A stretch of 64,000 nt of DNA from Psammoneis japonica (lineage: Eukaryota), in NCBI GenBank assembly GCA_008632985.1, contig QPGO01000009.1:620001-684000 (forward strand), written 5' to 3'. Shown in pieces: positions 10,938 to 41,720 of the stretch (its first letter is position 1; each line of letters begins with the position of its first letter). The notes under the pieces are model-generated. The model saw only the letters and a list, made by a program, of their open reading frames with translations, was not told where the DNA came from and made no database searches. The translations under genes were made by a program, and so were the position numbers.

Positions 10938-11281
10938 AGAAGAACAAAACGGGCGGACATGCATGTGCTTGGGCCGTCGAAAAACTAAAAGCTATAAAGC
11001 AATAAGAGTTACGAATACGAAATCGAATTGAAGATAGAGTGAACGAGAAGATTGCAGCATAACAGCATCCACTTTCTGATTTGTACACGATAGGACTGCA
11101 GCTGCACAGCATGCACACTCTGACCATAATTCGGTAATGGTGTTCTGTCCCTCCTTTCTAAAGTTACATTGCATGAGCTCTTAAAATATTACTACTACCA
11201 CATTATTATGAAAACACAGTCCTCTCTACTCTCGACTCTAGGATTCGGCTTTGACAACCAGAGCGCAAACTAATACGCGTA

Positions 11282-20559: not shown

Positions 20560-21681
20560 TTATTCTTTTGGTCCAGGCCAAAACTTGTGTTCGACAGAAC
20601 GCATCTCGTGTTCCAACTCAAACACCTTTTCGCCAGTCTTCATATTGATAATGTCCTTGAAGCGAAACTGTTGAAACTCTCTAGCACCTTGCAATGTTTG
20701 TGCCTTGTCTGAAAATCGTGGGTTCACCCACACTATATCGGCAATCTCGGCATTCCTAAAGGCTTGTTCAAAGTCTGCTCTAGTCTCACCGACATACATT
20801 GCCACGTGATGGCCATCGTACGGAGGAACGGGACGAGTCGTCTCTCGAAACAACAAATTCTGAGCCGCTTGGCCATTCGAATCGATGCTACCAAATCCAA
20901 TAATGGCAACCCTGTGTTCTCCATCTTGCACCACGGATGTGGTGGCATCCAAGACGACGTTGTAAAAGTCAGCAATGGTTTCGGCAGTGCCGACAGGACA
21001 ATCAAACTCGACATAGGCAATCCCACGGCATTCTGTTTTTCCATCCACACCGTACTTTGTGGCTACGTTTCCAAATTGTTCCACGTCTGCAGTGGAGACG
21101 ATTGGTTGTTGCAGAGTTGAATCGACCTTGGATTCCCGTTCACGACAAACAAACACATTACCGTAATTGTCGGTTAATTTGACAACATCACGTTCAATTT
21201 CGTGTGATGCAAAACACGCTTCTTTGGCGCTACTACTAGCCGCAACAGCCGCCAATACTCGATCCTTGAGTGGTTGCAAATCGTCATAGATTAAACCGAC
21301 ATGACCTGGTATGACTTGAGGTGTGTCTCCAAAGGGCAAGTGAAATTGAGACGCTCCACAATTGGCCCATACTGTTTTGGATCCGGCAAGCACATTTTCC
21401 GCCTTGCGTGGATCCAAACCAAGTCCCAACAGGTCAATGTAAAACGGAACGATGTAATCGTGATTGGGTACATTGAGATTGACGTGTTCCAACAGAGTCA
21501 GAGTGGATCGATCGACACAGCTTTCTGTAACAACCTGCATGAAAGTACGTTGGCTCTTGGTGGGAGAGAGCGGCTGCGCAGTGTTTTGGACGACGAAAGC
21601 AGAAAACGATAGAAAAGAATAGGCGGTTGGTATCAGGGCCAACGCCACAACCGCATAATAATTCACATCGATACGACGCAT
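20560..21681 (-). CDS. Plastid-targeted glyoxalase/VOC-fold-like protein
   Basis: Signal peptide plus transit peptide; LEHVNLNVP..FYIDLLGL..WANCGASQFHLP and a second repeat with HHVAMY. Confidence 0.7.
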   Translation of the reverse strand: MRRIDVNYYAVVALALIPTAYSFLSFSAFVVQNTAQPLSPTKSQRTFMQVVTESCVDRSTLTLLEHVNLNVPNHDYIVPFYIDLLGLGLDPRKAENVLAGSKTVWANCGASQFHLPFGDTPQVIPGHVGLIYDDLQPLKDRVLAAVAASSSAKEACFASHEIERDVVKLTDNYGNVFVCRERESKVDSTLQQPIVSTADVEQFGNVATKYGVDGKTECRGIAYVEFDCPVGTAETIADFYNVVLDATTSVVQDGEHRVAIIGFGSIDSNGQAAQNLLFRETTRPVPPYDGHHVAMYVGETRADFEQAFRNAEIADIVWVNPRFSDKAQTLQGAREFQQFRFKDIINMKTGEKVFELEHEMRSVEHKFWPGPKE

Positions 21682-24569
21682 ATTGTGTAAAGCTCGAAAT
21701 AGCTTCTTGTTATCCTGACTCTTTTTGCATTCACCTTGAATACCTTTTACCTTTTACTGTGTAGAGTGTGTCGTTGCGATGCGCTCATGCATTTTCTACC
21801 CGCAATTTTTCCTGTCCGGCGTCCGTCATCATGACAGCACCAACAACGCGTTGCAAGTGAATGTCATCCAGGACAACTTTCTGGCGAAGCTCTCTTTCAG
21901 ACAGGACTGATGATGCCAGCTCAAGTCCAGCAATGAGCTCAGCACTTGAAGCTGACAAAATTCACAACTCTCAAGTTGCTTCGTGGTCTCGGCAGCACAC
22001 TGGATGAGCGCAATCCCAGCTTTTTTGTCTGACTTGGTCATCAATGTAGAAGCTCACAAGAGGGCTGCAAAAGTCAGTGCAGAAGATCTTGAAGGCATGT
22101 GCAGACTCCTTGAATGATGGTGCTCTGAAGCCAGCAAGAGAGAGCTGCTCTCAAGCACCTTCTGTGGCTTTCCATGGGGAGCCACTTTCAGAAAAGGGCA
22201 ACAATGTGCTTGCCCTCAGACTGATGATGTGAGATCAACCTTGGCACTCAGCAGCAATGGCAACAAAGGAGCACATGGCAAAGAATTTGGAAAAGCAAGG
22301 CCAGAAGACCAGGTCAGATGGCAATGTGTTGTGCAAGCAATGTCGGCAAAGCCAAAGAGTGCAGTGCTCAAAATGAAGTCAGATCTTGTCATTTCAAGTG
22401 TGTGAGACCAATTTTTGAAGTTGGTTTTGCTCTGCAGGAAATGTTTTTGAACTGTGCTTGGGGTTTCTAATGTGCCAAACACCCTTGGTGCCATCAAGAC
22501 TCTGGATGGTCTTGTCATTTTCGCTGTCACAGCAGGCCACTCTCTGGACCTCTTTTCACCCAACTGAAAAGAGAGCCAGCTTTGAGTGTGTTTTCTTGCA
22601 CTCTTCCTTTTGTTGAGGTGAGCAACTCCAAATTCTGATGTGATCACACCTGTGCCATGAGATGGGGGGGGGGGGGTTCAGATTGTGGACTGACAGCTGC
22701 ACTTTTCAATGTTGCAGGTGTGTTCAAAAGTGTGTGGCTTCAAGATTGAGTTGGATGTGGAAACCAGCTTTGTCATGGCACAGAGGTTGTGCTCTTTGTT
22801 TCTGATGCAGCCACTCAAATCCATCCTGTGTGCATGGGTTCTGGCACAGCTGCATGGAGATCTCAGGTTCAAACTCTGCAGGAGGACCATGTGGCCCATT
22901 GAAGAAGGCAAATTTAAAAAAAACCCTCACCCAAAAACACAAGCAAAGAGTGAGAAGCAAGAAGAAGTGTTAGAAACACATGAAATGTGGCACAACAAAG
23001 AGGCAACCAAATGGCTTTGCACATGCCCAGTGCAATCCTGTTGCCATTTGCCATTGCAGTCTGCAAAACTTTTCACGTTGCAAACATTTTTGCAATTTTT
23101 GCTCAGAAATTCTGAGGACTTTCTGCACAGAAACTCACATCAGCTCTGATGCAAATTCTGCAGAGGTGGGAAGAGGCCAGCATGTCTGGCACCATGGTGT
23201 GCACATCATCATGGCATGCTTCTTGTGCAGTGCAGTGTGATGGGTGGTCACCAATCATGCTGCAAAGAAATGTGCAGTGGCACTCTTGCTGCCCCCCCCC
23301 CCTTTTGCTGATCCAGCATCAGGGGTGCAAGAAGAGTGCAGCACAGCCACAGTGGGTGCACTCCTTTTTTGTTTTGGGTTTTTTTTTTGCAACAACAAGC
23401 ACAGATCTTTCATCTGCTTCCAGCTGCTGTGAGCTTTGCCCCCTCTGCTGGGAGGTGGTGCACCACTGAGCTGGCCTCTTGACTTCAACTGTGCTCATGC
23501 TGTGTTGTTCTCAGCCATTTGTGCCTCACACAACATCAGCACAACTCCCAGCTCCAACTCCAAAAGAACCCACTTGTGAGGCTGCAGCTCTGGGAGATGC
23601 CAGGGGCAGGTTCATGATCCATTGCCTCAGCTCAAGGAACAGTGTGTGATGCAGAGGCTTGGCAAAGAAATCTGCAATCATCACCTCTGTGGGTCAACAC
23701 TTTGCTCTTGTCTCTTTGGGCCAGATCCCACAAGCTTCAAAGAAATGTTGGATGTCAATGTGCCTGGTGCATCCACCACCCATGCTTGGCTGTTGTGTTC
23801 TGGCCACATGACAGTGGCTGGCACTCTGGCCATCCTGGCACACATCATTGTCCTCCTTTGCTTGGCATCCCTGGGCAATCAGGAAGCAGTTCCCAGATCA
23901 AATCAAAAAAGAGCAACATTGCCCATGCCCACCAGCTGTGCTTTTTTGTGGAGCTCTTTTTCTGCCCAGCTTTTGTTTGGCAGAAATCAAGCACACTGAT
24001 CCCTCCTCTCCCAGTGACATGGGGGATGCACCAGCACAGCTCTTGCAGTCCTGGCAAACTGCAAAAGATGTGCCCACTCACCACTTCACAGCAGCGCGCA
24101 TCCTTGTCAGCCTTGAGAGCAAGTGCAAGGTCTTTTTGTCCTTGGAGATGCTGCGCACAGCAGTGCAACTTGCTCCAGTTGTCCTGAAGGGGCACGGACA
24201 CTCACACACACAGAAGCAATGCTGTGATCTGAAGAGGTCTGGCTTGGTCATGAAGTGCTGGCATTGGCCAACCCTGTCAGGACCCAGAGGAGGCTTGGAA
24301 AATGTGTTTGTGACAAAAAGGTTTTTCTTCACTGGGCTGGAGCCACTCTGGTGTTCATGTCCTTGGGAGCACCTCATTGCATTGATGGTGCACTCCATGT
24401 GTGGTTTTTCATGACAACAAACTTTGCTTTTCCGTCCTCAGAGAAATCAGCAGTTGGGCCCAGGCAATCATGCACCTTGCCCTGACAGACAGTGATTGGT
24501 GTTTTGTTGGCTGCACTTTTTTGTTAAGAGCACATTGCAGTGACATCTTCCAGCACCTGTTGTTTGATG

Positions 24570-27500
24570 CAAGAAAGCTCAAGGTCACCCGTTTGTGCCA
24601 CATGACAGCACACTGCTCACTGTCACCCACCTTGTTCATGACACACCAGCAACATGGGTTGACCTTAAAACATGGGTCCTTGCAGAGGAAGGAGGAAAGG
24701 TTTTTTCCATGACAAGTGCTCCCTGCTGGGTGCTGCACAGCCCCTTCTTGAGCCACACACAGAGCACCTGTGCTTTCCATTCTCCATTGCCACACACTTG
24801 CAGTGCTTTCTTAGATCAACTTTTGTCAACATTTCAGCCATCTTGCCATCGAGTTCACATGTGCACAAGCTTGTCCATGATGCCTGCATGCATGAATGTG
24901 CTCCTGGGATGTCTGCAGTCATGACTTTTCTTCTTTCCTGTGCATTGATTGTCAGTGGCTGAAATGGGGAGCTTGCTTGCTCATGTGATGGGTGCAGAGG
25001 TTTCCTCCCAGATTTTGCAGGGCCATTGCTTCCAGCCATCAGTGCATCCTTGTCTCTTGATCATGCTGCCCTGCTTCTGCTCAAGGCACATCAGGTGCCA
25101 GTGAGCACATTCTTTTTGCTCTTGGGCTGTGTCTCTGGCAAACACCAGCTGGACAACACCACAAAAATCAAGTTGCTGCATGTCCTTGACTGCATCATCA
25201 TCTGCCCCTTCACATCCAAACACTTTTGGTTCTTTCAATGCTGACATTTGTTCCACAAGAAACAGGGTGCCCTTGGGATCTTCAAAATGTTGTGTGATCT
25301 GATTCAGTTGGCAGCCCAACTCACTCACAGTTGGAGCAAGCACCAGCTGCAGCTTCTTTCCTTTTGTGCCCTGAGGTTGCAGGCATGGGCTCTGTGACCA
25401 TGTCTGCTGTGGCCCACCATTTCAGCATCCAGACCATCCTTGCTGCCATTGTCTGAGTCCAAGTCCAAATCACATTGCACCTTGAGTGATGGTGGACCTC
25501 CCTTGTCATTGTCTGTCAAGTCCACACACACTGTCAGGTCAGCACTGTCCCCAGCCGCACTTCCTCTCTCTGCTCTGGGATGAGCTCTGGTGTGTTTTGT
25601 TGGTGTCTTTGCTGTGTGTTTGGTTGAGCACATTGTTGTGTCTTGCTGAGGGAGATCCACATCAATGCGGTCCTGCTGCATGGGGTCAGTGGGACCCATG
25701 TTCAATGGGTCTTGCTCGGCTCTGTCATGTTGTCAAGTGGGGTGCACGTTGGCTTGTTCCAGCTCCAGGTGATGCGCAACTTTTTCAAAATCCGTTTTTT
25801 GCCAAATCGAAGGGTGAGTGCACACTTTGCATGCATTTTTGGGTGCACACTTGCCTTTCGATTTTCAAAACGATCAAAATTGAAGGAGTCACTTGCACTA
25901 AACTGCGCTGAAGATGTGCCTCTCGCGTGATGAAAATCATCTCACCTGGAGCTGGAACAGGCCTGTCAGCTGTCATGCTGTTTGGCTCAAATCCTGCCTT
26001 GCCTCTGCCCCCCCCCCTGTGTTGTGCCNCCCCCCCCCCTGCTCTTGCAGCTTTGCATCCCACTCCTGTGGTTTCTTCCATTTGATGGGGGTGCAATGAT
26101 GTGAAGAGCTCACTTTTGCAGCAAATGCTTGGGCACTTTGGGCTTGTGCAGAACCGTCATTGTTGGGGTCATCAGCTGAGTTGGAGTCACAGCCAGAGTG
26201 TGTTGAGTTGGCTGATGAGTCATTGTTTGGTGTGCAGGCAGAGTCATGATTGTTGTCAACTTTGTTTGCATGGTGGGGCAGCTCATGATTGCACCAATCT
26301 GTGGCTGTGAGGGTCTTTGGCATGTCTTGCTTTCTGTCTGTGGCAGCCACACAGGTGGTGGCATTGGCAGGCATTGGCACAGCCATCTAGCAGTTTTGGA
26401 CAATGCACTTCCCAGTGGCAAGTGACATGAAACATTGGCCACCTCATTCATTCCCAGTGGGCCCAAAGCAGATGGTGCAGGATGTGCATGGTGTCTCACA
26501 ATGCTGTTGTGTTCCTCACATGCTTGAGCAACTTGAGCACAGGCACCAAACTTGAGGTGCTCATGTTTGTTGCAATCAATGTGCTGCCCAGCACGGATGT
26601 GCCATGGGGGCAGGTTTCCAAGGGTGCTGTCATCATGGGGCAAGGCCGTGAGCTGGAGTGCCACACTGGACACCAGACAGGGATGATGACCAAATGGGGA
26701 ATCCCAGAAAATGGCAGCTGGTTGTGCCTGCTGCAGATTCAATCCTTGACAGTGCAGATGCCCTGTTCAATGTCTGACATGTGTTCATCATGGGAACAGA
26801 GGTCAAATGTGGCACTGGGCACTGGGTCTTCCAGCACTTTGAACTTGGGGCCAGCCTGAAAATTCTTTGTCATCTTGAACCCTCTCTGCTTGTGCCATGA
26901 CTTTCTTGAGTGCCACTGCCATGACCAGCTCTGGTGCCTTGGTGGCTCTTTGGCTGCACATGACAGCTGATCCAAAGCACAGTGCTTGGCATGAGATGAG
27001 GAAAAAACAGGTGCTGTTGATGAACATGATGTCAATGGACAGAACAAAACTGTGGCAAGTTTCAAGGATTGAGCTGGGCAGCTTGTCTCACTGCACACTG
27101 ACCAGTGTTCCCAGGCAGTGCAATGCACTGTCTTGCCCTCAAGCAACCAATGCACTCTGCCCAAACACATGGTGCACATGCCATTGACCACACACAATGC
27201 CTGGCAATCAGACAGTTGAGCACTTGGTTCCTGTCAACCAATCAATGCATGGCAGCATTGAAGGGGAACATCATGATGCTTTGAGCTGCTCTGGCGGAGT
27301 GATGGCATCCTGGTGCTCATGTTTGGGGGTGTGCTGCTGCTTGACCAAGTCCTCAAGTGCATCATTAACCATTGCCACCTTGAGCAACTGGTTGGTGGGG
27401 GGCTGTGCTTGATCACTCTCCCAACATTTTCATGCACCAGGAATCTTCAATCTCCTCTTGACCCATTCTCTTTACTTTCACAATCTGTGTTGAATTGCAA

Positions 27501-27850
27501 GTCCAGCGCACCTTCCACTTGATCACTTCCATGCCTTTTCCATCATCTGCAGCCTGGACTCTGTTGGGTTTGTGTTTGACATGTGCGATGAGTTCAACAC
27601 ACCTGTTCATGGGACAGACCTCTCCATTCATTGACGCTGTTGTCAAACCATTCTTCAAACAACATGCAGCCACTTGCACATGACTGACAGGAGAAAGAAG
27701 GAAGAAAGACTTCAAACAAAACAATGTGTGCCTGAAGAGCGTGCTTCTCATCATCCTTGCATCACGGTGAGGCACAAAACAGTCAACGGTCTCTTGCTTG
27801 TGTGGACCCAGAAGCTGCTGCAAAGAGTCAACATTGCATGAATGGGTCTC
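24570..27850 (-). mobile_element. Degenerate Ty1/Copia pol remnant (integrase then RT, truncated within RT)
   Basis: Integrase-region SHDEHMSDIEQGICTVKD and DCNKHEHLKFGACAQV. RT-region HLMCLEQKQGSMIKRQGCTDGWKQ, VMTADIPGA and FKVNPCCWCVMNK..EQCAVMWH. IN-before-RT order. Boundaries approximate. Confidence 0.8.
25751..25963. mobile_element. 213-bp MITE-like element with 22-bp terminal inverted repeats, nested in the Copia remnant
   Basis: ggcttgttccagctccaggtga (25751-25772) pairs with tcacctggagctggaacaggcc (25942-25963), 1 mismatch. There is also an internal inverted repeat. TSD not evident. Confidence 0.65.
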
Positions 27851-28718
27851 CAGAGAGCTGGAGTCTAGAGCAGCTGCTCTCTAGAGCTGGAGAGTGGCAG
27901 TGGCCACTGCTGGAGCTGATTGACTGATGGGGAATGCAGTGCACAACAGAAAGAGACAACAAATTGAGTGTGTCTGCAAAACAGCAGGTTGGAAGGTCCC
28001 CATCTGAGGTGTCAACCTTTCCAGCTGCAACATGCTTGCTCCTTTTGTTGCACAATGACTTGAAGCATTAGCCTCAGCTCATCTTGACTGTTGTCAGAGG
28101 TGCTGCAAGTCATGCATCAAAGCTGCTGCTTGGACAGCTGCTCATGCACAAACATGGGCTTGCAAGCACTTTCATCTTTCACAAAACATTGCTGCAATTC
28201 ATTGCGCCTTTTTTCATGGTGCACATGACAAACTGCAATAGTGTGACCACAAGAAGACTCCCTCAATCAATGGACAATGTCCTCCACATGTGATTTGGTG
28301 GGTGTGTCAATGCCTGCATGTTGATGTTCACTGTCACCACAATCTGCTTGTGTTGCATGTCAGGCAAGTGCAAAGAGCAGATGTCGCAGTCTGATTTGTC
28401 AAAGTTCAGCCAAAATTGAAAATTCAAATCCAAAGCAATCAAAAGTTTTGAACAAATTTCACTTCAAAACACTTGACAACAAATCGGGAAAGTGGCTTTG
28501 CAACATTTGGACATCACTGAATTGACAACCAACAATGCAGAATGAACCCGCACTCAAAACTGCATGCACAACAATGCAGTGATCCACGCAGAAAGTCTGC
28601 ACACATCAGAGATGCAGATGTCAGGAACTTCAACAAGACATGTGTTTCACACCACATGCAAATGAAGGTGAAATTTCTGTTTTTGTGGTTGGCAATGGTC
28701 ACGTGTTGGTGACAAAGT

Positions 28719-31700
28719 TGCACTGTGCTTGAAGAATGAGTGCAAACAAAAGTTGAGCAAGTGCAAAAAGTGAAAATTGCAAGATTAAAATCTGCTCAAT
28801 CATTTTGGGTTTCTCCAAACGAGCTCTCAACAGCCCAAAGAAGCTTCTGCGCTGCTTCCACAGACCAAATGGCCCTTCAGAGAATGCGATCGTGACAACA
28901 GATTGTTTGGGTGCAACCGCTGTTGACACATGGGATTTTTCAACATCATTGTGTGATTGCATTTGCAATTTCTGACATTCCAATCAAATCTGTGTGACCG
29001 ATCTGTCCTTCGCACAAACCTGCGATCATTGATGTGCGATTGAAAATGTGATGACACTGAGACACACAAATGCACACAAAATGTGTGTGACAATGCACAC
29101 TGCACTCACCTCCCCAATTGCACATTAGAGTCATTTGCTGAATGGTGCCATGCAATGGACATTGACAGTGTCAACAATGTCACCACATTTGACATCTGCA
29201 CTGTGCAGCTGCACTGTTGTCATCACACATGGTCCAACACAAGGCTGTTCTGTTTTTTTGGAGTCTTTCTCAAGCACCATCTTTTCTCCTGTTTTGCACG
29301 TGCACGGAGTGTGTCAAGCAATGTTTTTGTTTGTGATCACTTGTTTTTGTTTCTGGACAAGAAACTTCCAATTGGCAATGTGTTGGACATTGAAAATCAT
29401 GTCTCTGTTGAAGACCAATTGTCCTGATGCAGCTCACACAACAACATGGTGTGCGGAACACACAGCAAAAGCCGCTGCTGATGGCATGCCCAAAAATGAA
29501 TTGTCTGCATCCACAGGTGCATTTTGCAAGTTGAGCGCACACAGCACATTGTCTGGCACTTGATGCATGTGTTGCACAATTGCGCTCACCTGTGGATTTT
29601 GTGTGTGTGTGTGTGTGGGTGTGGGGGGTTGACTTTAATGCCACAATCATCTTGGAAGCATGTCCTTGAGCTGATGTCCAATGAGTTCACTTCCACAGTC
29701 ACATGCAACCAATGACAACCAAGGACATCTGCTTGGCCACATCCTTTTTGACAGCCCAGCTGCAGTTGTGGATTTCTCATTTGGAATTTCCACAACTTCA
29801 AACCATCCTGTTGCTGGATTGATCATTGTCAAACATTTGAGGACCAGGGGGCTCTTCTTTCCCTTGCAATGCATCTTGCATGGTCCAATGAGATCCACAC
29901 ATGGCAGTTCCCATGGTGTGGCTTTTCACACTCAGCAGGCAAATGTCCACATTTCTTGTGTTTCTTTTTGAATTTTTGGCACGTCTCACATTTTGACACA
30001 CATTTTTGCATGTCTTTGCACAAGGCAGACCACCACAAGTGTTGCAAGATTGTCTCTTCTGTTCTGTTCATGCCAGGGTGAAGAAGGCACATGTGGTGCC
30101 AGCCCACCACTGCTTTTTGCAACATCTTTGGTGCAACGATTTCATCCTTGTGACACATGAGCAACCGGTCTTGCTCACCTCCATGAAAAGTCTTTGCATG
30201 ACATGTCTCTTTTGACAATTGGGAGAGAATGTCATTGTCCCCTTTCTGTTCAGTGTCAATGACTTTGTGTGTCAACAGAAGGACATTGTCATGGGATTTT
30301 GGTGAGATTTTTTCAGCTCGTTCTTCTGTGCTGAGATTTTCCATGGGTTCGATTTTTCTCACAGTGAGTCAGCTGATTGCATCTGCAACAATGTCAGCCT
30401 TGCCCTTGAGGTAAATTGTTCTGGGACTGCATTCTTCTGATGTTAGATGCCAACGCACAAATTCATCTGTTTTGTAAAATTTTTGTGTGAGATTTTTGTG
30501 ATCCGTGTGTGCATTTGTCTGTTGGCCAAACAGTGTGTTTTAGAACTCTTTTGGTGTTTCCACTGCAGACAGCACTTCTTTTTCTGTTGCAGTGCAATGC
30601 ATCTGTGCTCCATTCAGCTTGCAGCTGCAGAACAAAGCAGTGGGTCAGTTGTTCTGCATGACAACTGTCCCCAATTGAGAGTTGCTTGTGTCAGCACATG
30701 TCTCAAAGGGTTTGTTGAAAGTCGGGTGTGACAAAATGACTCATCTTTTGAAATGATGCACTTTGTCTTTTTGAATTCTTTTTACTCCATTTTGGTCCAT
30801 TGCTGCTTTGCCTTGGATTGGCTGAGTTTGGCCAAAGGAGCAAGAACATGAGAACATTGAGGCCACATGTCTCAACAGCAGTTGATGATGCCAACAAAGC
30901 ATCACAATTGTTTGCAAATTTTGGGAGTTGGGATTGCGTGAATTGCTTCCACTTTGTCAGGTGCCAGACCAACACCATCACAGGTGACATGAAAACCTGG
31001 ATGGCCCACTTTGAATTTGGCAAAAAAAGACTTTTTTGTGTTGACCTTCAACCCAGCTTGTTTGAGGCACATGAACACCGTTTCAAGCTCATTGAGGTGG
31101 TCTTGAAAATCACCTTTTGCAAGGCATGGCACATTGTCAACACAAGTTCTGACAAACTCTGGCCCTGCCATGAGCTCACTTGTGTGCTCTTGGAAAATTT
31201 CTGGAGCTCCACAGATTCCCACAGGCAGTCTGCAGCAGCACTCGCATTTTTCCCGGGGCATGATGATCATGCACAAGCAACATTCATGTGGAATTAATTC
31301 AATGTGACAGCACCCCATGTTTGAATCAAGGAAAGTGGCACACATGAAACACTCAAGTTTCTGTGGCATGTCTTGAACATCAGGTGGAGGGAATGGAGCA
31401 CGTGTTGACCTCTCATTTGGTTCATGGAAGTTGGGCAGGAACCAAACTTGACCATTTTTCTTTCGTTGAACAAAGGTTGGAGGTGCCCATTCAGAACAAT
31501 TTGTTTTTCTCAAGACTTTCAACTTGCATGGTTTTTCAACTTCCTTTCAAGCAGTTGCCTCCAAGGCTTGTGGCATGGGAAATGGCTTCAACATGATGTG
31601 GACTTGCATCTGATTTCACCTTGAGATCCACTGGTTTCCCGGTCCATTTGCCCAGAGAACCATCAAAAAGGCTTTCAAATGTTTTTAGCAGGAACTTCAC

Positions 31701-32950
31701 CTGCTTCTGTTCTTCCGAAGTTAGATGAGTTGCTGCTGCAGTTTCACATTGATGAGGTTGGCAGCATTGCAATCTGAGTCAAAAGGGCCCAATTGACCCT
31801 GTCATTGAGACCAATTGCAGCATGAGATTCCTCAATGCAATCAGCAATCAACTTGAAAACATTGGCAGCGAAGTGTGCATCAACATTCTTTGTCAGTCCA
31901 GTCAAATCCTTTGATTTGACCTCTTCATCAGCAAAGTCCAATGTGATTCCAAGACTGGACACATCATGTCATGTCCCAGAATCACATCATGATGTCTTGA
32001 AGAAGAGTGGGTGTTGTCAACATGCACCATTGTTTCCATCATGTGTTTGTCAAATTCAGGTGAGGAGAATTGGATTTTACACTGACTGTCAGTCATGAAG
32101 AGTCCTCCTTTGGTCCGGCAGATTCTTTTGTTCTCAGTTTCCATGTGAACTTGCACAAATTGTGCTTGGCGATGTTCTGCCATCAAGGAGAATGTGCAGA
32201 GGCTTGTTTTCACTCCACCTGAGGAGGCATTTGTGCAAGCAATGACTGGTGGACCAGCGTGGATTGCTTTGGCTCTTTTTCTGGCCTTCCCAATGTTCAG
32301 CAGCATGCAAGACTCCTTGAGTGGTGCCAGTCATTCCTCAGAATTGCTGCACATTGTTTTTTCAAACTGACAGTTTTCCTCACTGAGGGTGTCAGAGTCA
32401 TGTTCCTTGCTCTTTTGCTTTGTGTCTTTGTTCAAAGAGAACTTGTCTTGAGTGTTTTTTTAGCTGCCTGAACAATCATGTCATCCAACTCTTCTTTGCA
32501 ACTGGTGTTTTTGTTGTCATCACACAACCATGTGTGTGATTGCCATTTGAACAATGCCATTTTGGATCATGCTCATGGTTTCCATGGCATTCTTTTGATG
32601 GTCGTTCAATGACCCAGCACTTGCCTGCATCATGAGTGGTTTTTTCACAACAACTGCACCACTTCTTGGACTCAGCACCTGTGGTTGCCATTTGAACAAT
32701 GCCATTTTGGATCATGCTCATGGTTTCCATGGCATTCTTTTGATGGTCGTTCAATGACCCAGCACTTGCCCGCATCATGAGTGGTTTTTTTGCAACAACT
32801 GCACCACCTCTCAGACTCAGATCATTTGGTGCCAGATTGGCAACCATTTTGGAACCATGATTGGATCCATCCTTGGCTTTTGATCCAGACTTGTTGCTTT
32901 CATCAGAAGTGGAAGAGCAAGTTTTCCAACATGTGAAAAAAAATGTTGCT
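28719..32950 (-). mobile_element. Degenerate Ty3/Gypsy element (gag CCHC, PR, RT, RH, IN, PPT, 3' LTR 28719-29104); 5' end missing
   Basis: WCSCCEKTTHDAGKC, ILLDG, SEWAPPTF...LDSNMGCCHI...RTCVDN, LLHPGMNRTEETI...CETCQK, MDLIGP. The LTR is homologous to 54673-55050. Confidence 0.85.
32540..32820. repeat. Tandem duplication (about 145-bp period) covering the gag zinc-knuckle region
   Basis: tgccatttgaacaatgccattttggatcatgc... occurs at 32541 and again at 32686. Confidence 0.85.
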
Positions 32951-32969
32951 TGCCAAGTCTTGTTGCACT

Positions 32970-33900
32970 TCCCTTGCTTCAATCGCAACTTCTGCATCTG
33001 CCATGACATGAGCAACTGTCAACATGGCACTGTCACAACTCAAGTGTTTGAGGACAGTGAGCAGCCCATTGCATGATTCCACAGCTGCAAATTGTCTTCA
33101 GATCAATGCAGCTGCACTGCTGTGGAGAAGGAGTTGCTGTCCATTGTCAAAATGATGAGTGCGTTTTGCAATGTCCTGTCTGGACATCATGTGCACATCA
33201 AGACCAACCACCAAAACTTGTTGTTCAACAGATTCAAATCAAAGCATGTCAAACATTGGTGCCTCTCATTGGCAGAGCATGATTGTGCTTTTGAGTGTCA
33301 CCCTGGCAAGGACAACGTCATCACCAACTTTTTTAAGTTGCCATCTGGTGGCTGATGTTTTGCCGACAACTTTGAAGAAGCCGCGACCTTGGATCTCTCT
33401 CTCTCTCTGTCTGAAAATGAGTTCCTGGCCACTTGTGGCTGCACTGCAGAATGCCAAGGAGCTGCTGACAAGTCTCTTCAACTTCACAGAAAAGACCTCT
33501 TCCATGTGTGTGAGCTTTTGGTTTCAAAAACATTGCGCCATTCTGTGGAACGACAAGATTGCCCTTCCGCCAACCTTGTTCCCAACTGTGCTGTGCTTGT
33601 GTCATGATTCTCTTTGTCATGTTGGAGCCAATTGCACCCACCTTGCTCTTGCCTTCCAGCTGCACATTTGGGACATGCAAAAGTTGACCAGCCATTTTGT
33701 TTGTGCTGGGTGTTGGGTGTGTCAAAAACAGAGACGTTCCGTGAAGCAGTGCAGCGAACTGCTGCCACCAGACATCACATGCAAACCATGGCAAGTTGTG
33801 GAAGTCAATCTTTTTGGTCCCTGGTCATTTGCTGATGTTGCCAGCATTGGCCGTTCCATCAAAGCTGTCTCTGTGATCGACGTCGCCACTTGTTGGATGG
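32970..33900 (+). mobile_element. Degenerate Ty3/Gypsy fragment (RNase H plus integrase N-terminus) in opposite orientation
   Basis: CTAVEKELLSIV...IKTNHQNL...ECHPGKDNV; HDSLCHVG...CWVCQK...PWQVVEVNLFGPW. Confidence 0.8.
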
Positions 33901-34198
33901 CTGCAAGACCTCCCCCAAGAATGTCTCGCACATCGTGGATCTCCTTTTCGCATCATGCGCACATCCACCCCAATGGGGGCAGTCACCATCCAGCACTCTC
34001 CAGACATCACTGAATGGATCAGCATCTGTCGTCTTCACCCTGTCTTCTAAACTGTCCAGTTGGGGAAGCGAGGGCCGTGAGTGCGTGCGTCTGTCCGCAA
34101 GAGTGTCGTGTGCGTGTCCCATCCACATTTTTTCTCAGTGATTTTCCGAATGTTTCTCTGTGTTCTCAATGAGTCATTTCAATGACTTGTCCCTCTTG

Positions 34199-34362
34199 TG
34201 CAAGCTCAAGCTGAGGTTGATGTCAAAACAAAGAAGTGAGCAGACCGAAGAGAGGGGGAGCCCAAGCGTCAGCGAGCGCTGGCGAGCCCTCTCAAACGGC
34301 TGCATCAATCTGACATCCAAAATTGACACTGCACATCAGAAGCGTGCGAGTGAGTTGCTGCA
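34199..34362 (-). repeat. 3' LTR (164 bp)
   Basis: Direct repeat of 39462-39625. Confidence 0.95.
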
Positions 34363-37300
34363 CTCTTCCCTTCCATGATCCGAAAGAACTGGAGGATCAT
34401 GCAAAGGGCCAAAACCAAGGACCAAAACCGAAAGAAATCACAGCAGCAGGAGGAAACCCAGGTGTTGGGAAGAAAACCCCCTGATCAACCACGAAAAGGA
34501 ATCAGGCGCCAAATGTTGAGGCGCTCAACCACATGAGGAGCTTGACGAACCAAGAGCATGCCATTCACATGCACTTGAACAACAGGACAAGGGCCATGAG
34601 CACGAGGCTCGAGTCTGGACGGGTCAACCGACTTGATTGGAACTTGATCACCCACTTGACAATCGCAGGATCTTCTCTTGGCATTGGCTCGTCGCAAATT
34701 GTCGTTGATCAGCATCTGGCGATGGCCTTGAATTGTCAACAAATCCGCTGTCACAGGGATGTCTAGGATCATGTCACGTCCAAACACCACAGCACCTGGC
34801 GAAATCTGTAGAGAACGGGAAACAGCACAGCAAGTTGCATGCATTGCAGTTGCCAAAGCATCGTCCACGAGGCCAGCTGCATCCTGAAGGTTTTGAGGTG
34901 GATCAGAAGCAATGAGCGTGCGCAATGCATTGCCGATGGTCTGATGCATTTGTTCACAAATGGCACTGGCTTGAGGGTTGTACGAAGCAGTCGACACATC
35001 ATCAATTCCGGCTTGTTGCAACAGCATCTGGAACTTGCACCCAGTGAACTCGCCGCCGTCATCGTGGATGCATCAATTCGGTCTGGGACAGCGTGCAAGC
35101 CAGCAATTTTCAAATTGGTTGGCGGCATGTCAGGCAGTCTCATTTTCAATTCTCGCCAGCTCAACAAGATTGGAGACAGGATCAATGCAGGTCAATGCCC
35201 GAAACTCGATCTCTCCATTCGGTGCTTTGATTTTCCACGGGCCAATGAGGTCAACCGCCACTTCCGACCAGGGAGTCAATGGAGCCTCTCGCTCAGGCAA
35301 CTCTCCATGGCCAGGACCCAAGGTTTTGTTGCGTCGGCAATCAGCGCAAGAGCATTCATCACACATGCGATGCATGCCAGGATGACAACAATGAGCCTGA
35401 ATCGTTTCACGCATGCGCTGGCTTCCGGCATGGCCAAGGACGAGATGACACCACCGCAAGATGTCGGGCACAAGCGCAGTCGGCAAACAGATTTTCCACT
35501 GTCCTGGCGGATCATTTGGTCGCATGCGACAACACACAAGTGGTCGATTGTTCACACATTCCACAAGGAAACGATCAGGGTGAGCAGCGCGCATCTGGTT
35601 CAACTGTTGGTCCTTGAACTGGTGCTCCTGGATGCGTTGTGACATCATCTGGATTCTGCATCTCCTGCATTGCAGGGCAATTCAAGAAGGAATCAAACAG
35701 CTCCAGCTCATCGACAAAGAAAGAGAAGAAGTGTGAGTGGCCTTCATTTTCAATGTTGCGACAACACTTGAATTGGCGTGCGCCGAGCTCCAAGTCCTCA
35801 TCGCGGAAATCCTCGACTTCGGATGGTTCCTCACTCGGCACCAACTTCGAATCGAGCGGAGCAAAATCAACAACAGTTCCTTTGCCCGGAGCCAAGCTCT
35901 TCCCTTCAGAGGGAGGATCCACGCAAGGCAAATGAGAAAAACAATCAGCCAGGACATTCAATCGGCCTTCAATGCAATGGAACTGAGGGGCGAAATCTTC
36001 CAGAAAGAGTCGCCAACGAAGTGCGCGTTGTGAATTCAAGGTGCGAAAGGCAAGGTTCTTGTGGTCAGTGAATGTACGCAAGTCGCCACCAAGGAGCATC
36101 GATCGGAATTTGCGGAAGCACATGACAACGGCCAACAGTTCTTTTTCGATCGTCGAGCAGTTTTGTTGTGCCGCACTTGGCTTTTGAGACCAGCATGCAA
36201 CAGGTTTTACGTCCTGTGCAATCACTGCACCCATCTGGCAATCACTGGCATCGGTGTAGATGTGGAAGGGTTTGTTGTGATTGGGATGCACCATCAACGT
36301 CTCGGCCGCCAGGACTGCTTTCATCTCATTGAACGCCGCCTGACATTCCGTTGTCCACGTCCACAAGCCTTTGCCTGTGAGATCTGTCAAGGGTTTCAAC
36401 AGGTGAGAACGCCGAGGCCACATGTTGCGACAATGCGTCACAGCACCAAGGAACGAACGAAGCTGCTTGATGTTCTCCGGAGGTTGCATTCGCAGGATGG
36501 CCTCCACTTTTTTCTTCCACAGACGAACTCCAGTCGGAGTCAGCCAATGCCCAAGGAAACCCGTTTCCTGCACACACCATTCGCATTTCAAGGGACCCAC
36601 TTTGAACCCAGCTTCTTCCAAGCGCTGCAAGAGTCTGTCAAGACGGTCAAGGTGAATGTCAAAGTCGTCATCGAATTGAGCGAGATCATCAATGCACGCG
36701 CCAACATCCAAGTCATGCACAGTTTTCTCAATCAAATGTTGCGCAACATCTGGAGCCGGCTTCAGACCCATCGCTAGACGGCAGTGTCGACACTTTCCAA
36801 AAGGTGTCACGATTGTCGTCAGATCCTTGGAATCGTCATCCAATTCAAACGTGCAGCACATCATTGAGAGGTCCAGTTTGGTCAGAAACTTGCACCCGGC
36901 TCTCTTCTGCAGCACATCTTGAATGATCGGCAAAGGATGAACCTTGCGCTTGAGGGCTTTGTTGAGTTCCCAAAAATCACTGAGCCACCACACTCGACCA
37001 TCCTTCTTCGGCCGAATAAAAGCACCAGCAGCCCATTCCGAAGTTCCGGCTTCCTCAAGAACGCCAAGAGCCACTGAATGATCCAGTTCTTGTTCAAAAG
37101 TCTTGAGATCATTGTGCGGCACTGTGTGCGCTCAAGAATGACAAGGAACAGCGTTGGGATCAATGTCAAGGTGAACTTTTTCGCCAGCATGCTTGCCGAG
37201 AGTGCCATCGAAAAGAGCAGTGTGTTTTTCCAACACGAGGCGCAATTTTTCTTGTTGTTCGGCAGTGAGATGCTTCTGAGCTGATGCTGCTTCAGAAGGG

Positions 37301-39461
37301 GACGTCTCCTCATGCTTGGCATCGAGGATGCAGCTGTCCCGCACTTCATCATCGTTAGCTGGCTCGTCAGCCAAGTCGTCAAGCCACTGCTGGATGCCAG
37401 TCCGTTGATTTCTTGGTTTCATCGCGATGCTTGAATTGAGCCACTTGACAATTCTGTGTTCGAAATCTAACGTGACACCTGCTCTTGCCAAGAAGTCCTG
37501 CCCAAGGATCACACCGCATTGGCAAGGTGAGTCAAACACATGCGCATGCATGCCATCAACACGCTTGGTCTTGTCAAATTCAGGGAGCACCACATCCCGC
37601 AGTCAAACGGCAACGAGTCGATTCGAATTCTCCCGCTGTCGTCCGAAACTTTGCAACAATTGGTCCTGTTTCCTCCAATGCTGGCACCGCTCCAACTGGC
37701 AACACCCGAGCATGAATCATTGAATGAGTTCCACCGGAGCCGAGCAACACCCGCATCACGCGCTTGCTTTCCTTGTCTTGAATGAATCGCGCCGCGAACA
37801 AGGTTGCAGGGACCACGTTTAAAGGTTTGGTTGGTTTTGTTTTTGGGGTTGGCACAGCGTGCTCAAGTCCCACATCGTCTTTGTCATTCACAGCACAATT
37901 TTCGAAATCGTCATCATCAAACAAATCAGCAGCATGCGCGCGACAATCATCAATGCAATCAGTGCAATCATCAAACATGCAGGAATCAGGAGCGACACAC
38001 TCGGACGACAGCTCTTCAAGCTCATTGGGTCAGTGTCGACCGCGTCCGGAGAAGCAACCACCAGGTCAAAAACTTCCCGCTCCACCTCGATGCTCACGAG
38101 GCCCTCCTGTTGAATCAAGATGATGGCTTTCAGCAGACCAATCATTGGGAGGAGCCATTCTGGCTGGATTGCCGCAACCGCCGCCATCTGCATTGGTTCG
38201 GGTGTCGTTTTGACATTGCATGCAGGAGCCACCATCTTCATGATGCTCGCCGCTGTTGCCGCCAGAGTCACAGTTTCCTCGACCGCCACAATTTCCTTGG
38301 CCACCACCACGACCTTGACAGCCATGGCCTTGCCAACCACGACCTTGAGTTCCGCCACAACCACAACCTCCACCGCGACCGCCACCTCAACCACCGCGGC
38401 CACCACATCCGCAACGCCACAATCAGTTCTTGGACGGCAGTTGTTGGAGTCAGGATTCACGGTGCAATCTTTCCACTTGTGATTGTGATGTGCAATGGAC
38501 ATTGGGATTCTGGGTCAATGCGATTGCCTTTCTTCTTGTTCGAGCTGCCTTTAGACTGTCCATCCTTGCGCTTTTTCGATGTCTTCTTGTTCCTGTCCGC
38601 AAACGATTTCTCTGTGCTCACATGCGTGACAATTTCCGCTGGCATGTCATTTCCAATCGTGCGTCCTGCTCTTGCACACATCTCGCGCCACGACAGAGGG
38701 AAGCTGTCAAAAATCATCTTCTTCTTCTGGTTCTGAGCAACAACTGGATTGTTTCCCAGCAACGTGCCAAAGTTTCCATTCGATCCGCGTGTGCCTGTGC
38801 TTCAACGTCGTGCGGCTTTTTAAGAGCAAGCAAGCATTCAATCATCGTGTCACGTGCTTCAGTTTCACAATGCGACAAATAAAAACGAGCCAATTCTTGG
38901 TCAAAACGAGCCACCGTCTTCTGCGCATCTGGAATCGCCATGGTGAGATTGGACCATTTGTCTTCAGCAGCATCCGCCAACACTTCCTCAAAGTTGTCAA
39001 ACAATTCTTCTCCCGCAGTGAATTCGAGTTTTGCAGCCAGTTTACGAAAACGATCTTCCACGAACAACAACGCTTCAATTCCATTGCTTCCGTCAAAACG
39101 AGGGCACTTTTTTGTGCACGTGCTTCCATCGTCGTGCGATTGAGTCAACTTTGCGAGCTCCAAATCCGAATGGGCAAATTTCGCAGCATGCAAAATGCAC
39201 GGTTCCTTGGGGCTCTCGCGATTGCTCATCAGGCCAAGTTGGTCTGCCAAGGAACTGTTTCAAGCACTCTACCTTCGATTCGAGCTGTGCTGCTTGAATC
39301 GCCAAATCCTGTTCGCGTTGTTTTCGTGTCTCCTTTTCTCGTTTTTGCTCCAAAGCCCAGTTTGCTGCCGTCGCTCTCAATGTTCTTTTCTCTTGTTTCG
39401 CAAGCCTGTCAGTTGCATCGTTGTTTCTCATTCAGCTCTTTACAATCGACTGCAGTCACAG

Positions 39462-39625
39462 TGCAAGCTCAAGCTGAGGTTGGTGTCAAAACAAAGAAGT
39501 GAGCAGACCGAAGAGAGGGGGAGCCCAAGCGTCAGTGAGCGCTGGCGAGCCCTCTCAAACGGCTACGTTAATCTAACATCCAAAATTAATGCTATGTGTC
39601 AGAAGCGTGCGAGTGAGTTGCTGCA
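39462..39625 (-). repeat. 5' LTR (164 bp)
   Basis: Direct repeat of 34199-34362. It retains several TpA sites lost in the other LTR. Confidence 0.95.
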
Positions 39626-39645
39626 TCTTGTAACAAGTCTTTTAA

Positions 39646-40040
39646 GGGGGGTCATCCCCGCGTTTATCCTAAAATTACCGTTGCATTTGAATAAGGTTTT
39701 TTATAGTGTTTATTTTTGAATACAAGAATTATTCATAGTCACACCCGATCGCGCACGAAAACGAGAACCATCAACACCGCGATCGAAGCACGACGATGAT
39801 GACAATCATCGATATTTCTCAAAAACGTAGTTTGCCGTCTACCAACTTTTCATGTATATACAATCTTTGATACATAACAAACATAAAATAAATGAGAGTT
39901 GGTAGACGGACCACCTCCGTCACAGACTTATAGCTTGTTGTTTTCACCACGGTGAAGCACGGTGAAATTCAGGAAAAATCATGCAAAACACGAGCTATTC
40001 GGCCGAATTCGAGCTAAAAAAAAGTAGCAACCGACCACCC
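39646..40040. mobile_element. 395-bp non-autonomous DNA transposon with TTAA target duplication and GG...CC ends (Kolobok-like)
   Basis: TTAA|GGGGGGTC...GACCACCC|TTAA. Removing it and one TTAA restores collinearity with the homologous empty site at about 41584-41606 (reverse strand). Confidence 0.7.
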
Positions 40041-40429
40041 TTAAATGACTTGTTACGTGTGTCTATCTGCGCTTGGTTCGGTTTCTGATCACAAAACTAT
40101 ACTATGTACTCGGAGTATCTCTTGGGCATTCCTAACTTGATGGCCGGCACTGACTGATGAAGCAGAAGTAGACAGAATGCTCTCAGCGCAACGTTCAGCT
40201 TCGGCAATTGACTGCTTTCCGGAAAACAATGCTGGAGATGGAAAACGAATGCGAGACTCACAGCGAAGGACTTATTCTTCAACTATTTTGTATTTAGAAA
40301 ACTACATATCTCCTAAGGCTTATTCAAACATGGATCAACCTCTCTAATTAAAATGCAATCCTCTTGACCAAACTGCATGGCATAGGTGCTTTACATCACT
40401 GCTAGTCACAGAGTTGTCATACGGTGTCG

Positions 40430-41332
40430 CTAACCAGCGCAACAGCATTGTACCGAGTACTCCAGCCATTTTACTCTCGAACCGATGAGATCCGTAGTAT
40501 CCCGCGTGAGTATGGTTGCAGTACTACCTCTGCGTGTCATGCCCATTACGTACATCTTGAACTCCCCTTCAGGGTTTATGTCTTTCCCTAGCGACACGGC
40601 AGGGCTGATATCCACTCCTGTCACTGGACAAGAGTTGCTCTGGGCCAACCAAGCACATTCCACAGTGCTGAGAACCACATTTGTTGACGACACTTTCAGA
40701 TAGTATCCATCGTACTCCCCAGGTCCGCAATCAAATGTTAGCCACAGTCTATCCAGGGTCTTACAGAAAGGGCTGGTCAAGCTTTCTATTTTGTTGTAGT
40801 AGCAGTGGGCGCTAAAGTAATCTGCTCCCACTCCATTGCAGTTTACTTTCCAACTGCCCAGATAGTTTCCGCTATCTTCATCCCTAATACATGGTATCGT
40901 GACTTTCTCGTCCCCGAAAGATTTGACTTTGCATCGCCTCCAATCACCTGTCTTGTGGTTTTTGGCACCTAACCTCCATGCACTCGTTGAGCCAGGCAGT
41001 GATTTCAATATTTGGGTGGATACACCTACGTCAAATCTCTCTGTGCGAGTGAAGTCCGAACACCACGGGTAACTATTTTGGGGTATACATTCAGCAGCAG
41101 CTGCCGCACAAGCGGATGCGGGCACCAATGGCTCACCTTCCCGCTCTACGCCGTCATCCACAGCTAAGCACTCTGTATACTTATCTAACGTGCGTAAGAC
41201 GCGTTTGGGGTTTGAGCACACCCCATTGCCCTCCTCGCCAATAACCCGCGATGATGACGATGATGGTTTCACACCTTCAACGCATATTATCGCTAACGTA
41301 CATATTGCTGAAAGAAGTGCCTGACTCGTCAT
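40430..41332 (-). CDS. Secreted Cys-rich hypothetical protein (300 aa)
   Basis: Uninterrupted ORF with a signal peptide and normal Tyr/TpA content. Confidence 0.7.
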   Translation of the reverse strand: MTSQALLSAICTLAIICVEGVKPSSSSSRVIGEEGNGVCSNPKRVLRTLDKYTECLAVDDGVEREGEPLVPASACAAAAAECIPQNSYPWCSDFTRTERFDVGVSTQILKSLPGSTSAWRLGAKNHKTGDWRRCKVKSFGDEKVTIPCIRDEDSGNYLGSWKVNCNGVGADYFSAHCYYNKIESLTSPFCKTLDRLWLTFDCGPGEYDGYYLKVSSTNVVLSTVECAWLAQSNSCPVTGVDISPAVSLGKDINPEGEFKMYVMGMTRRGSTATILTRDTTDLIGSRVKWLEYSVQCCCAG

Positions 41333-41553
41333 CTTCTTGTAGCTTCAACTGTTACGTTTGCTCGTCACCACTTCTCTTCTCTTTCTGCCCAATGGCGCCA
41401 ATTGATAGTTGATAATGTAGTTGTTATTGTTAGGTTCTCGAATTGTAAGATGATGTAGAACAGATCTCTACTCTAGCTAGTACTAGTAGAGTAGTAGAGA
41501 GAGCTACTCTCGCAGAGATCTCGTAGATTCTGTGTAGAACGTAGTAGTTGAAG

Positions 41554-41720
41554 GTGATCAGAATCCGAACCCAGTCACATACAATAAGTCATTGAAAAGA
41601 CTTATTACAAAGGGATAAGTCATTGAAATGACTCGTTTAACTCGCGGAGAAACATTCTGAAAATCACCCAGTTGATGTAGATAGGACACGCACACGACAC
41701 GCACACAGACAGAAACACGG
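41554..41720 (+). repeat. Putative transposon terminus; inverted homolog of 34075-34198 + 39631-39645 + 40045-40092
   Basis: gtgatcagaatccgaacc pairs with ggttcggtttctgatcac (ends 40092). Both copies share twin palindromes aagtcattgaaa(a/t)gact and ggacacgcacacgacac. Confidence 0.75.

Follow-up and report, generated by a model that had tools for sequence, protein, structure and literature searches.

The DNA examined here is a 64,000-nucleotide stretch of contig QPGO01000009.1 (positions 620,001 to 684,000 of the forward strand) from the genome assembly GCA_008632985.1 of the diatom Psammoneis japonica; the whole stretch is referred to below as the window, and all coordinates are positions within it. 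The window holds host genes, among them a FAST-kinase-like gene that carries an array of 111-bp tandem repeats and a tandem family of three gene copies, together with a composite of nested repeats in which Ty3/gypsy long terminal repeat (LTR) retrotransposons are recognizable and from which the dinucleotide TpA (TA in counts) has almost disappeared (Table 1). A sequence-only reading of the window had attributed this loss to a distinct mutator that converts TpA to TpG or CpA on either strand of repeated DNA. The present analysis examined that proposal, which gains support from the substitution spectrum of two gypsy copies, from the loss of tyrosine codons, and from a comparison of the two LTRs of one element, and we consider it likely that the composite consists of nested Ty3/gypsy copies and other repeat DNA in which a dinucleotide-specific hypermutation turned essentially every TpA into TpG or CpA.

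Table 1. Features of the window in order of position. U and M are the gypsy fragments compared in the text, and X1 is a public sequencing run.
Feature	Position	Strand	Evidence or content
Host FAST-kinase-like gene, open 842-aa frame	4091-6619	+	FAST_1, E = 6.6e-57, 8 stretches
TA-free part of the 111-bp tandem array	4266-5115	+	1 TA vs 46 expected
Tandem host gene family keeping TA, negative control	11238-17902	+	three copies spaced 2.5-2.9 kb
X1 contig cover	21001-22548		0 differing letters; crosses the sharp left border
Main TA-free composite block, nested repeats	21798-39441		46 TA vs 1161 expected; TG and CA enriched
TA-free and CG-free DNA, unclassified	21798-28718		no Pfam match; X1 contigs at depth 58-70 with 0-4 differences
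X1 contig cover	22916-25806		3 differing letters
X1 contig cover	26065-28748		4 differing letters
M, 3' end of the old gypsy element	28719-29529	-	2 TA, 13 CG
Old Ty3/gypsy element, TA-free, CpG-decayed	28719-32174	-	Integrase_H2C2 29829-30368, RVT_1 30902-31546; tblastn 29136-32174
Gypsy fragment (RNase H and integrase zinc domain), TA-free, adjoining the young insertion	32819-34013	+	Pfam; tblastn 32819-33978
X1 contig cover	32821-34057		0 differing letters
Young, structurally complete Ty3/gypsy LTR retrotransposon	34199-39625	-	LTR pair and 5-bp target-site duplication; TA 22 vs 323 expected
Open 518-aa reverse transcriptase/RNase H frame	35575-37131	-	RVT_1, RT_RNaseH, RT_RNaseH_2; 1 Tyr in 518 residues
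Outer LTR, partly mutated	39462-39625	-	LTR-pair comparison; 5 TA left
TA-free and CG-free block, unclassified	41894-45242		TA 7 vs 214 expected; CG 20 vs 203
TA-free block, unclassified	52526-54194		TA 7 vs 98 expected
U, TA-normal gypsy 3' fragment between two TA-free blocks, comparator for M	54229-55051	+	67 TA and 49 CG in 823 bp
TA-free block, unclassified	55016-55465		TA 0 vs 26 expected

Counted per kilobase, TA fell into two classes, with at most 5 in 22 of the 64 one-kilobase segments and 14-77 in the other 42. The near disappearance of TpA described by the sequence-only reading held at 0-5 TA per kb throughout 22001-39000, including a count of exactly 4 in 36001-37000, where about 4 had been given by eye, and the normal abundance that it ascribed to the flanking genes corresponded to the 14-77 per kb of the ordinary parts of the window. 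The limits of the main block were set by the gaps between successive TAs; within them the 46 TA present compare with the 1161 expected from base composition, and with about 709 expected at the observed/expected (O/E) ratio for TA in the ordinary parts of the window (Poisson log10 P = -234). Both of the products that had been named were abundant in the same block, TG at 1895 against 1138 expected and CA at 1969 against 1061 (about 1.7-1.9 times). Four further TA-free blocks, at 4-5, 42-45, 52-54, and 55 kb (Table 1), lay beyond the interval originally singled out. In TA-free DNA the O/E of TA was 0.04-0.07 and that of TG and CA 1.3-2.0; the ratios of AA (0.93-0.98), AT, and TT were unchanged. 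The borders were sharp and the flanks ordinary both at 21797, where the left edge of the main block falls abruptly about 45 bp from the start of a glyoxalase-like open reading frame (ORF; 20560-21753, minus strand), and at the end of the outer LTR.

Retroelements were placed in the main block by Pfam and by tblastn with 118 homologues, and Ty3/gypsy domains (reverse transcriptase, RNase H, and integrase zinc domain) were found at 29136-32174 on the minus strand, 32819-33978 on the plus strand, and 34493-38026 on the minus strand. The last of these belongs to a young element bounded by 164-bp LTRs (34199-34362 and 39462-39625), each of which begins with TG and ends with CA, and by an intact target-site duplication, TCTTG, at 34194-34198 and 39626-39630; the named best relatives of its 518-aa frame were from diatoms (Pseudictyota, Cyclotella, Thalassiosira, and Cylindrotheca). 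Beside the loss of TA there was a depletion of CG, with an O/E of 0.16 in 21798-34198 and CG also nearly gone from 41894-45242. The young element, in which the O/E of TA was 0.07, had a near-normal CG O/E of 0.84, which indicates that two layers of change are present and that the loss of TA is independent of the loss of CG. No Pfam match was obtained for ORFs of at least 90 aa in 21798-28718, and Pfam searches of the blocks at 41.9-45.2, 52.5-54.2, and 55.0-55.5 kb gave no significant match. When the window was compared with itself in a purine/pyrimidine code, the only relationships recovered were the U/M pair described below, the two reverse transcriptase regions, the LTR pair, and the host gene family; other matches stood at the level of the shuffled control (69 hits), and the unclassified TA-free blocks were not linkable to one another.

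The TA-free state is derived, as the protein-coding parts of the elements testify. Every tyrosine codon contains TA. In the 518-aa frame, 14 of the 15 columns at which tyrosine is conserved in 40 homologues held cysteine (9) or histidine (5); over the whole young element, in which 422 of 535 conserved columns were unchanged, the 25 conserved tyrosine columns read C 14, H 9, Y 1, and F 1. The 33 such columns of the old elements read C 16, H 5, F 7, Y 1, and other 4, and these elements also showed the changes of CpG decay (R>C 9, R>H 6, R>stop 4). The altered motifs to which the sequence-only reading had pointed were all present, namely CIDD (36685-36696), CVDN (31133-31144), HCR (36427-36435), DASDC (36238-36252), and GPC (e.g., 29878-29886), each on the minus strand. 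Related elements on metagenome contigs had a TA O/E of 0.45-0.71 at five of five loci (23-65 TA per kb), so that the element lineage is not intrinsically TA-poor; with the homologues keeping their tyrosines as well, the possibility that the family consensus is itself free of TpA, which had been named as a potential objection, was not upheld.

Three other accounts were considered and rejected: an intrinsically TA-free family, given that tyrosine codons require TA and the relatives have normal TA; selection against UpA in transcripts, given the loss of catalytic tyrosines such as that of YxDD, which kills the element; and GC-biased gene conversion, given that AT, AA, and TT were not depleted.

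Tyrosine-poor proteins also occur elsewhere. Among the 120 homologues listed there were two, P0017 (a JGI record), with C or H at 14 of 19 conserved tyrosine columns, and P0067, with C or H at 8 of 17; the control homologues P0001 and P0015 retained tyrosine at 20 of 20 and 18 of 19. P0133, which is 83% identical to P0017, has normal tyrosine, and the two differ by C/Y at 10 positions, H/Y at 4, A/T at 7, and V/I, A/V, and M/I at 3 each, besides other pairs of this type; by manual count about 38 of their 81 differences lie in the TA>TG/CA direction and about 5 in the reverse. As far as these protein records go, they point to the same hypermutation in their source organisms. More broadly, three gypsy reverse transcriptase proteins from other public data sets (P0017, P0122, and P0067) contain 0.8-1.1% tyrosine and 7-8% cysteine plus histidine.

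The direction and specificity of the change could be read from two gypsy 3' fragments, U, in which TA is normal over a span that coincides with its span of homology, and M, in which TA is almost gone. Identity between U and M is 72% when all four letters are compared and rises to 90% in purine/pyrimidine code. The 65 aligned TA sites of U appear in M as TG (28), CA (23), TA (1), or other (13), so that 51 of 65 were turned into TG or CA; its 46 aligned CG sites appear as TG (16), CA (19), CG (7), or other (4); and TG was kept at 39 of 52 TG sites and CA at 41 of 54 CA sites. From U to M there were 49 A>G and 37 T>C changes. With both strands considered, the frequency of A>G per A was 0.42 after T, 0.11 after A, 0.13 after C, and 0.04 after G, and that of G>A per G was 0.39 after C and 0.10-0.16 elsewhere. 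A lack of TpA preference, which would have told against the proposed mutator, was therefore not observed, A>G being 3-10 times commoner after T than after the other bases.

Bases flanking the dinucleotide also mattered. Among the TAs that survive in the blocks, YTAR contexts (Y, pyrimidine; R, purine) were enriched over all others (odds ratio 8.8, p = 1e-16): TTAA survived 5.1-fold relative to the mean (15 inside the blocks, 76 outside), CTAA/TTAG 3.9-fold (22 and 145), and CTAG 2.0-fold (6 and 79), as against 0.11-fold for ATAC/GTAT (1 and 233) and 0-fold for ATAT (0 and 119). Sites of the form RTAY were thus lost first and YTAR sites kept longest. Editing between U and M had affected 39 of 69 As with a pyrimidine on their 3' side and 12 of 35 with a purine there (p = 0.039); YTAY sites became TG in 8 cases and CA in 2, and RTAR sites became CA in 7 and TG in 4. 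This dependence of the product on the flanking base indicates that the preferred site is 5'-TAY-3' on the edited strand. In the young element the base before the tyrosine codon, in a weak count made by eye, was associated with C:H outcomes of 7:2 for pyrimidines and 7:7 for purines, and a comparison of trinucleotide gains (TGx) between the young element and outside DNA gave no clear product context.

The change was made in place and affected both strands. A retrotransposon lands with two identical LTRs. Those of the young element now differ at 11 sites, 10 of which are TA/TG/CA/CG sites: five hold TA in the outer LTR and TG or CA in the inner, three hold TG in one LTR and CA in the other, two are CpG sites, and one is of another kind. 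There is therefore one difference outside YR dinucleotides in 164 bp, in a pair of which one member has had all of its TAs converted. The fully converted member is the inner LTR, which adjoins old repeats; the outer LTR, with five TAs left, adjoins unique DNA, and TA density is normal from the first bases past the target-site duplication. The two products were about equally represented among the lost tyrosines of the young element (Cys:His 14:9, binomial p = 0.40). A second, independent case is the FAST_1 gene, which carries about 20 tandem 37-aa FAST_1-type repeats with a DNA unit of 111 bp: seven units starting at 4274-4940 contain no TA and the later units 1-5 each, and the same column reads TA, TG, or CA depending on the unit, so that WAYA has become WAHA or WACA. 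The LTR differences, the occurrence of both products, and the conversion of the array together exclude, as the main cause, editing confined to one strand of RNA or cDNA. The substrate of the change is double-stranded chromosomal DNA, altered in place and about equally on the two strands; the change stops at the borders of the repeat unit and is far faster than background mutation and CpG decay.

A consequence of this chemistry is that it leaves reading frames open. In the standard code, TA>TG/CA makes no new stop, as TAA>TGA stays a stop and TAA/TAG>CAA/CAG removes one. This inability to make stops accounts for the frames of 518 and 842 aa that have stayed open and for the many long ORFs in the region, the proteins being destroyed by Tyr>Cys/His and similar changes while the long frames remain. 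DNA free of TA has neither TAA nor TAG and consequently accumulates long, spurious stop-free frames on both strands. There are 35 ORFs of at least 150 aa in the 25 kb between 21000 and 46000, most without a Pfam match, and most of the long ORFs in this interval are probably not genes.

A comparable process has been reported in the chlorarachniophyte Bigelowiella natans (Mettrop et al., bioRxiv 10.64898/2026.01.13.699255). Two viral regions integrated in its genome acquired 231 new mutations in mutation-accumulation lines, of which 230 were A>G/T>C, all of these at TpA; the rate was about 1000 times background, and 11 of the 15 lines were affected, with a maximum of 45 changes in one line. The genome also contains TpA-poor, CpA+TpG-rich clusters, and among its coding sequences those poor in TpA show an excess of reverse transcriptase and DDE domains (bioRxiv 10.64898/2026.01.13.699255). 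The authors of the preprint propose an ADAT2-like adenine deaminase, which they leave unproven, and cite amphioxus BjADAT2 as a DNA-acting form of ADAT2 (bioRxiv 10.64898/2026.01.13.699255). The two cases share changes that are almost only A>G/T>C, restricted to TpA, of both products, and confined to non-host segments with ordinary flanks, with TpA depletion and CpA/TpG enrichment as the long-term trace; here the exception to confinement in selfish DNA is the affected part of the host gene's tandem array. They differ in host, a rhizarian there and a stramenopile here, and in target, the B. natans regions being single-copy integrated giant-virus and virophage DNA with many TpA left (Rho 0.45), whereas LTR retrotransposons, unclassified repeats, and a host-gene tandem array were hit here, to a TA O/E of 0.04-0.07. 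The rate was measured in the B. natans lines, whereas the end state alone is seen in the window. What the window adds to that report is a bias in the flanking bases, borders that follow those of the elements, and evidence from the LTRs that the change was made in place.

Adenine deamination at 5'-TA(Y)-3' in DNA is most likely the mechanism. Adenine in a 5'-TA-3' context would be deaminated to hypoxanthine by a TadA/ADAT-like or other deaminase, whose activity would come in episodes and be directed by homology, small RNA, or chromatin to DNA that is repeated or silenced; the loss of CpG in the older copies would be a second, ordinary layer, produced by deamination of 5-methylcytosine (5mC) in methylated repeats. 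The tRNA deaminases TadA and ADAT2, of which the engineered adenine base editors are a DNA-acting form, convert A to I and thereby give A>G, and their natural target, A34, follows U33. The site in bacterial tRNA-Arg is U-A-C, which matches the preference for TA followed by a pyrimidine found here. We know of no natural enzyme that erases TpA from double-stranded chromosomal repeats.

The main rival to a deaminase, which we regard as unlikely, calls for no dedicated mutator. A modified base kept at the palindromic TpA of silenced repeats, for instance an oxidised thymine such as 5-hydroxymethyluracil (5hmU) or 5-formyluracil made by a TET/JBP-type enzyme, or a modified adenine, would decay by mispairing and yield T>C/A>G, much as 5mC decays at CpG. 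Dinoflagellate 5hmU prefers TpA, and 5-formyluracil mispairs with G. Because TpA is palindromic like CpG, a mark on both strands would give equal TG and CA, as seen; the loss of TA shares its blocks with the loss of CpG in the old copies; and conversion is partial in the outer LTR and where the array ends, as would be expected at the edge of a marked domain. Such decay sits poorly, however, with near-complete conversion in an element whose LTRs show one non-YR difference in 164 bp and whose CpG stands at 84% of expectation, as the conversion must then have been much faster than 5mC decay, which is itself fast. The changes in B. natans came in bursts across lines, which fits a regulated enzyme better (bioRxiv 10.64898/2026.01.13.699255).

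Editing before integration, by an ADAR-like enzyme on RNA or an APOBEC-like enzyme on single-stranded DNA, would have the elements arrive already mutated. This we hold to be very improbable, even though the identifiable TA-free DNA is mostly retrotransposon, separate editing of the two LTRs in a cDNA is conceivable, and ADAR is described in the B. natans preprint as preferring a 5' U (bioRxiv 10.64898/2026.01.13.699255). Both strands were changed, with Tyr>His, a sense T>C, at 9 of 23 sites; the host-gene array was converted without a retro-intermediate; about 7 kb of TA-free DNA carries no retroelement signature; and the lesser conversion of the outer LTR, beside unique DNA, than of the inner LTR, beside old repeats, is a chromosomal position effect. 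Error-prone repair synthesis recruited to repeats, with the WA>WG (W, A or T) preference of Pol eta, had been offered as a candidate by the sequence-only reading because the WA hotspot includes TA, but it is disfavoured to the point of being scarcely tenable: AA was not depleted in the blocks, A>G per A in the U/M pair was 0.11 after A against 0.42 after T, and patch synthesis would hardly reach near-complete TA conversion.

The reality of the TA-free sequence was assessed with X1, a 2019 public run that contained 0.59 of the sampled words of 33000-42000 and whose contigs were compared over 21001-41000. The four long covers of Table 1 had word depths of 58-72, a single-copy level, and reproduced the TA-free sequence, which argues against an assembly artefact; the young element was covered by short pieces only. 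Exact 31-mer contigs at about 60x would imply high-accuracy reads, short-read or HiFi. Differences were checked at 39 of 40 listed positions (1231 further rows fell outside this set), all of them places where every X1 contig differs from the window, so that they bear on assembly versus reads and not on other genomic copies. One of the 39 would restore TA; at 16, lying in 22916-29792 and 34136-39536, a CG in X1 stands against TG or CA in the window. A concern of the sequence-only reading, that reads might show TA at these sites, was not borne out by X1, and as far as can be judged the TA-free state is real DNA sequence. That a modified base in the repeats was mis-called and TA is really present is most improbable: the 16 CG sites indicate that some CpG consensus error or allelic difference exists, and X1 is perhaps not independent of the assembly, but single-copy contigs match TA-free stretches of 1.2-2.9 kb with 0-4 differences, one of them across the left border, TA is restored at a single checked site, protein records of other public data sets carry the Tyr>Cys/His pattern, and Illumina-based calls show the same change arising in B. 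natans (bioRxiv 10.64898/2026.01.13.699255).

X1 also yielded some smaller observations. The sites with CG in X1 and TG or CA in the window that stand at single-copy depth are 23775, 27027, 27030, and 28565, and 29454 shows the reverse; such sites could be CpG polymorphisms between alleles in methylated repeats, or methylated CpGs wrongly called in the assembly consensus. A single N lies within TA-free DNA at 26029, and the long X1 contigs end at 25806 and restart at 26065. A second run, X2, covered 7 of 30 bins, mostly in the flanks, and a third, X3, covered none; neither was used as evidence.

Several observations weigh against hypermutation of repeats as set out above. Two copies of the host gene family, 11238-12841 and 13752-15357 (1.6 kb, 79% identical), keep 73 and 66 TA, and their comparison showed no directional TA>TG/CA change. 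The 823-bp gypsy fragment U keeps its TA though flanked by TA-free blocks, and 39677-40343, immediately beside the young element, has normal TA at a summed X1 word depth of about 7000, against about 60 for single-copy DNA, and may be a short high-copy repeat that escapes the loss. The flanking-base rule is modestly supported for the choice of product (p = 0.039) and is not visible in the tyrosine codons of the old elements, in which a weak count by eye gave no pattern of preceding base against Cys or His. The ancestral state of the young element is deduced from proteins that are 45-60% identical to its own and from its LTRs, and X1 may derive from the same sample as the source of the window's assembly. 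The exceptions that keep TA show that duplication alone is insufficient, and the process would be either episodic or subject to requirements of length, identity, or chromatin. The description "repeat-targeted" is consequently an incomplete rule: the transposable elements and the tandem array were hit, and the 79%-identical 1.6-kb duplicate and U were not.

Among known systems, the closest parallel in outcome is fungal repeat-induced point mutation (RIP), which likewise produces two-strand, in-place dinucleotide transitions in duplicated DNA, with near-saturation, limits at the repeat unit, and weaker edges, which can hit tandem repeats within genes, and which results in dead transposons. RIP requires RID/Dim-2 and a premeiotic stage. 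Its chemistry is opposite, C>T mostly at CpA, creating TpA and stops, and no such signature was found in the window, where A>G at TpA removes TpA, enriches CA, and makes no stops; its trigger is duplication beyond a threshold of length and identity, and here transposable elements and a tandem array were changed while the 79%-identical duplicate and the 823-bp U were untouched. Deamination of 5mC at CpG is similar in that a palindromic YR dinucleotide is lost to TG and CA, and it was evident in old copies only (CG O/E 0.16; 35 of the 46 CG sites of U are TG or CA in M). It cannot remove TpA, and it has been slower here, as the young element shows (CG O/E 0.84 against a TA O/E of 0.07); the earlier statement that neither RIP nor 5mC decay removes TpA thus agrees with our results, CpG decay forming a separate layer. 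APOBEC3 and ADAR also inactivate retroelements by deaminase-type hypermutation, but their substrate is single-stranded cDNA or RNA, and their signature is restricted to one strand and to retro-copies, in contrast to the 14:9 ratio of Cys to His, the near equality of TG and CA, and the converted host array found here.

Full-text literature searches found no report of TpA-directed hypermutation in diatoms, and a term search of two papers on diatom transposable elements found no mention of it. Within these searches, the suggestion that the phenomenon is undescribed in diatoms stands for this group, but the phenomenon itself was described in 2026, in B. natans, in the sole other report that the searches turned up (bioRxiv 10.64898/2026.01.13.699255).

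We infer a role in genome defence. It is possible, and we advance it tentatively, that diatoms and chlorarachniophytes, perhaps with much of the stramenopile-alveolate-rhizarian (SAR) assemblage, share a RIP-like defence in which an adenine deaminase acts on double-stranded chromosomal 5'-TA(Y)-3', is guided to repeated or invading DNA, works episodically, and erases TpA. If so, the shared pathway would kill tyrosine codons, TATA-like and AATAAA-like signals, and the TA/TTAA target sites of transposons, and would never create a stop. The diatom would then be a second lineage, and a more extreme case, after one rhizarian preprint of 2026, which suggests a widespread eukaryotic defence principle that mirrors RIP with the opposite chemistry. 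A natural adenine deaminase able to work on double-stranded DNA, or a pathway by which repeats become accessible to such an enzyme, would be of interest to the base-editing field, and because diatoms offer transformation, gene editing, and known sexual cycles, the enzyme and its targeting rule are within reach of experiment. There are consequences for annotation as well: TA-free DNA is a trap for gene callers, "proteins" without tyrosine enter databases (P0017 and P0067), and copies diverge so fast at TG/CA sites that repeat finders miss them, as the 72% four-letter and 90% purine/pyrimidine identity of U and M illustrate.

Two further ORFs in the window resemble methyltransferases. The first (49443-50948, plus strand) combines a UPF0020 domain (RMKL-like methyltransferase, E = 3.7e-32) with an RlmL ferredoxin-like domain and is probably an RNA methyltransferase, unrelated to the loss of TA. 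The second (62229-63998, minus strand), which runs off the end of the window and which nothing ties to the loss of TA, encodes a divergent C-5 cytosine DNA methylase domain (PF00145, E = 1e-48); ten relatives were found, the best at 41% identity, and the sole named eukaryotic relative is from the diatom Seminavis robusta (36% over 42% of the query).

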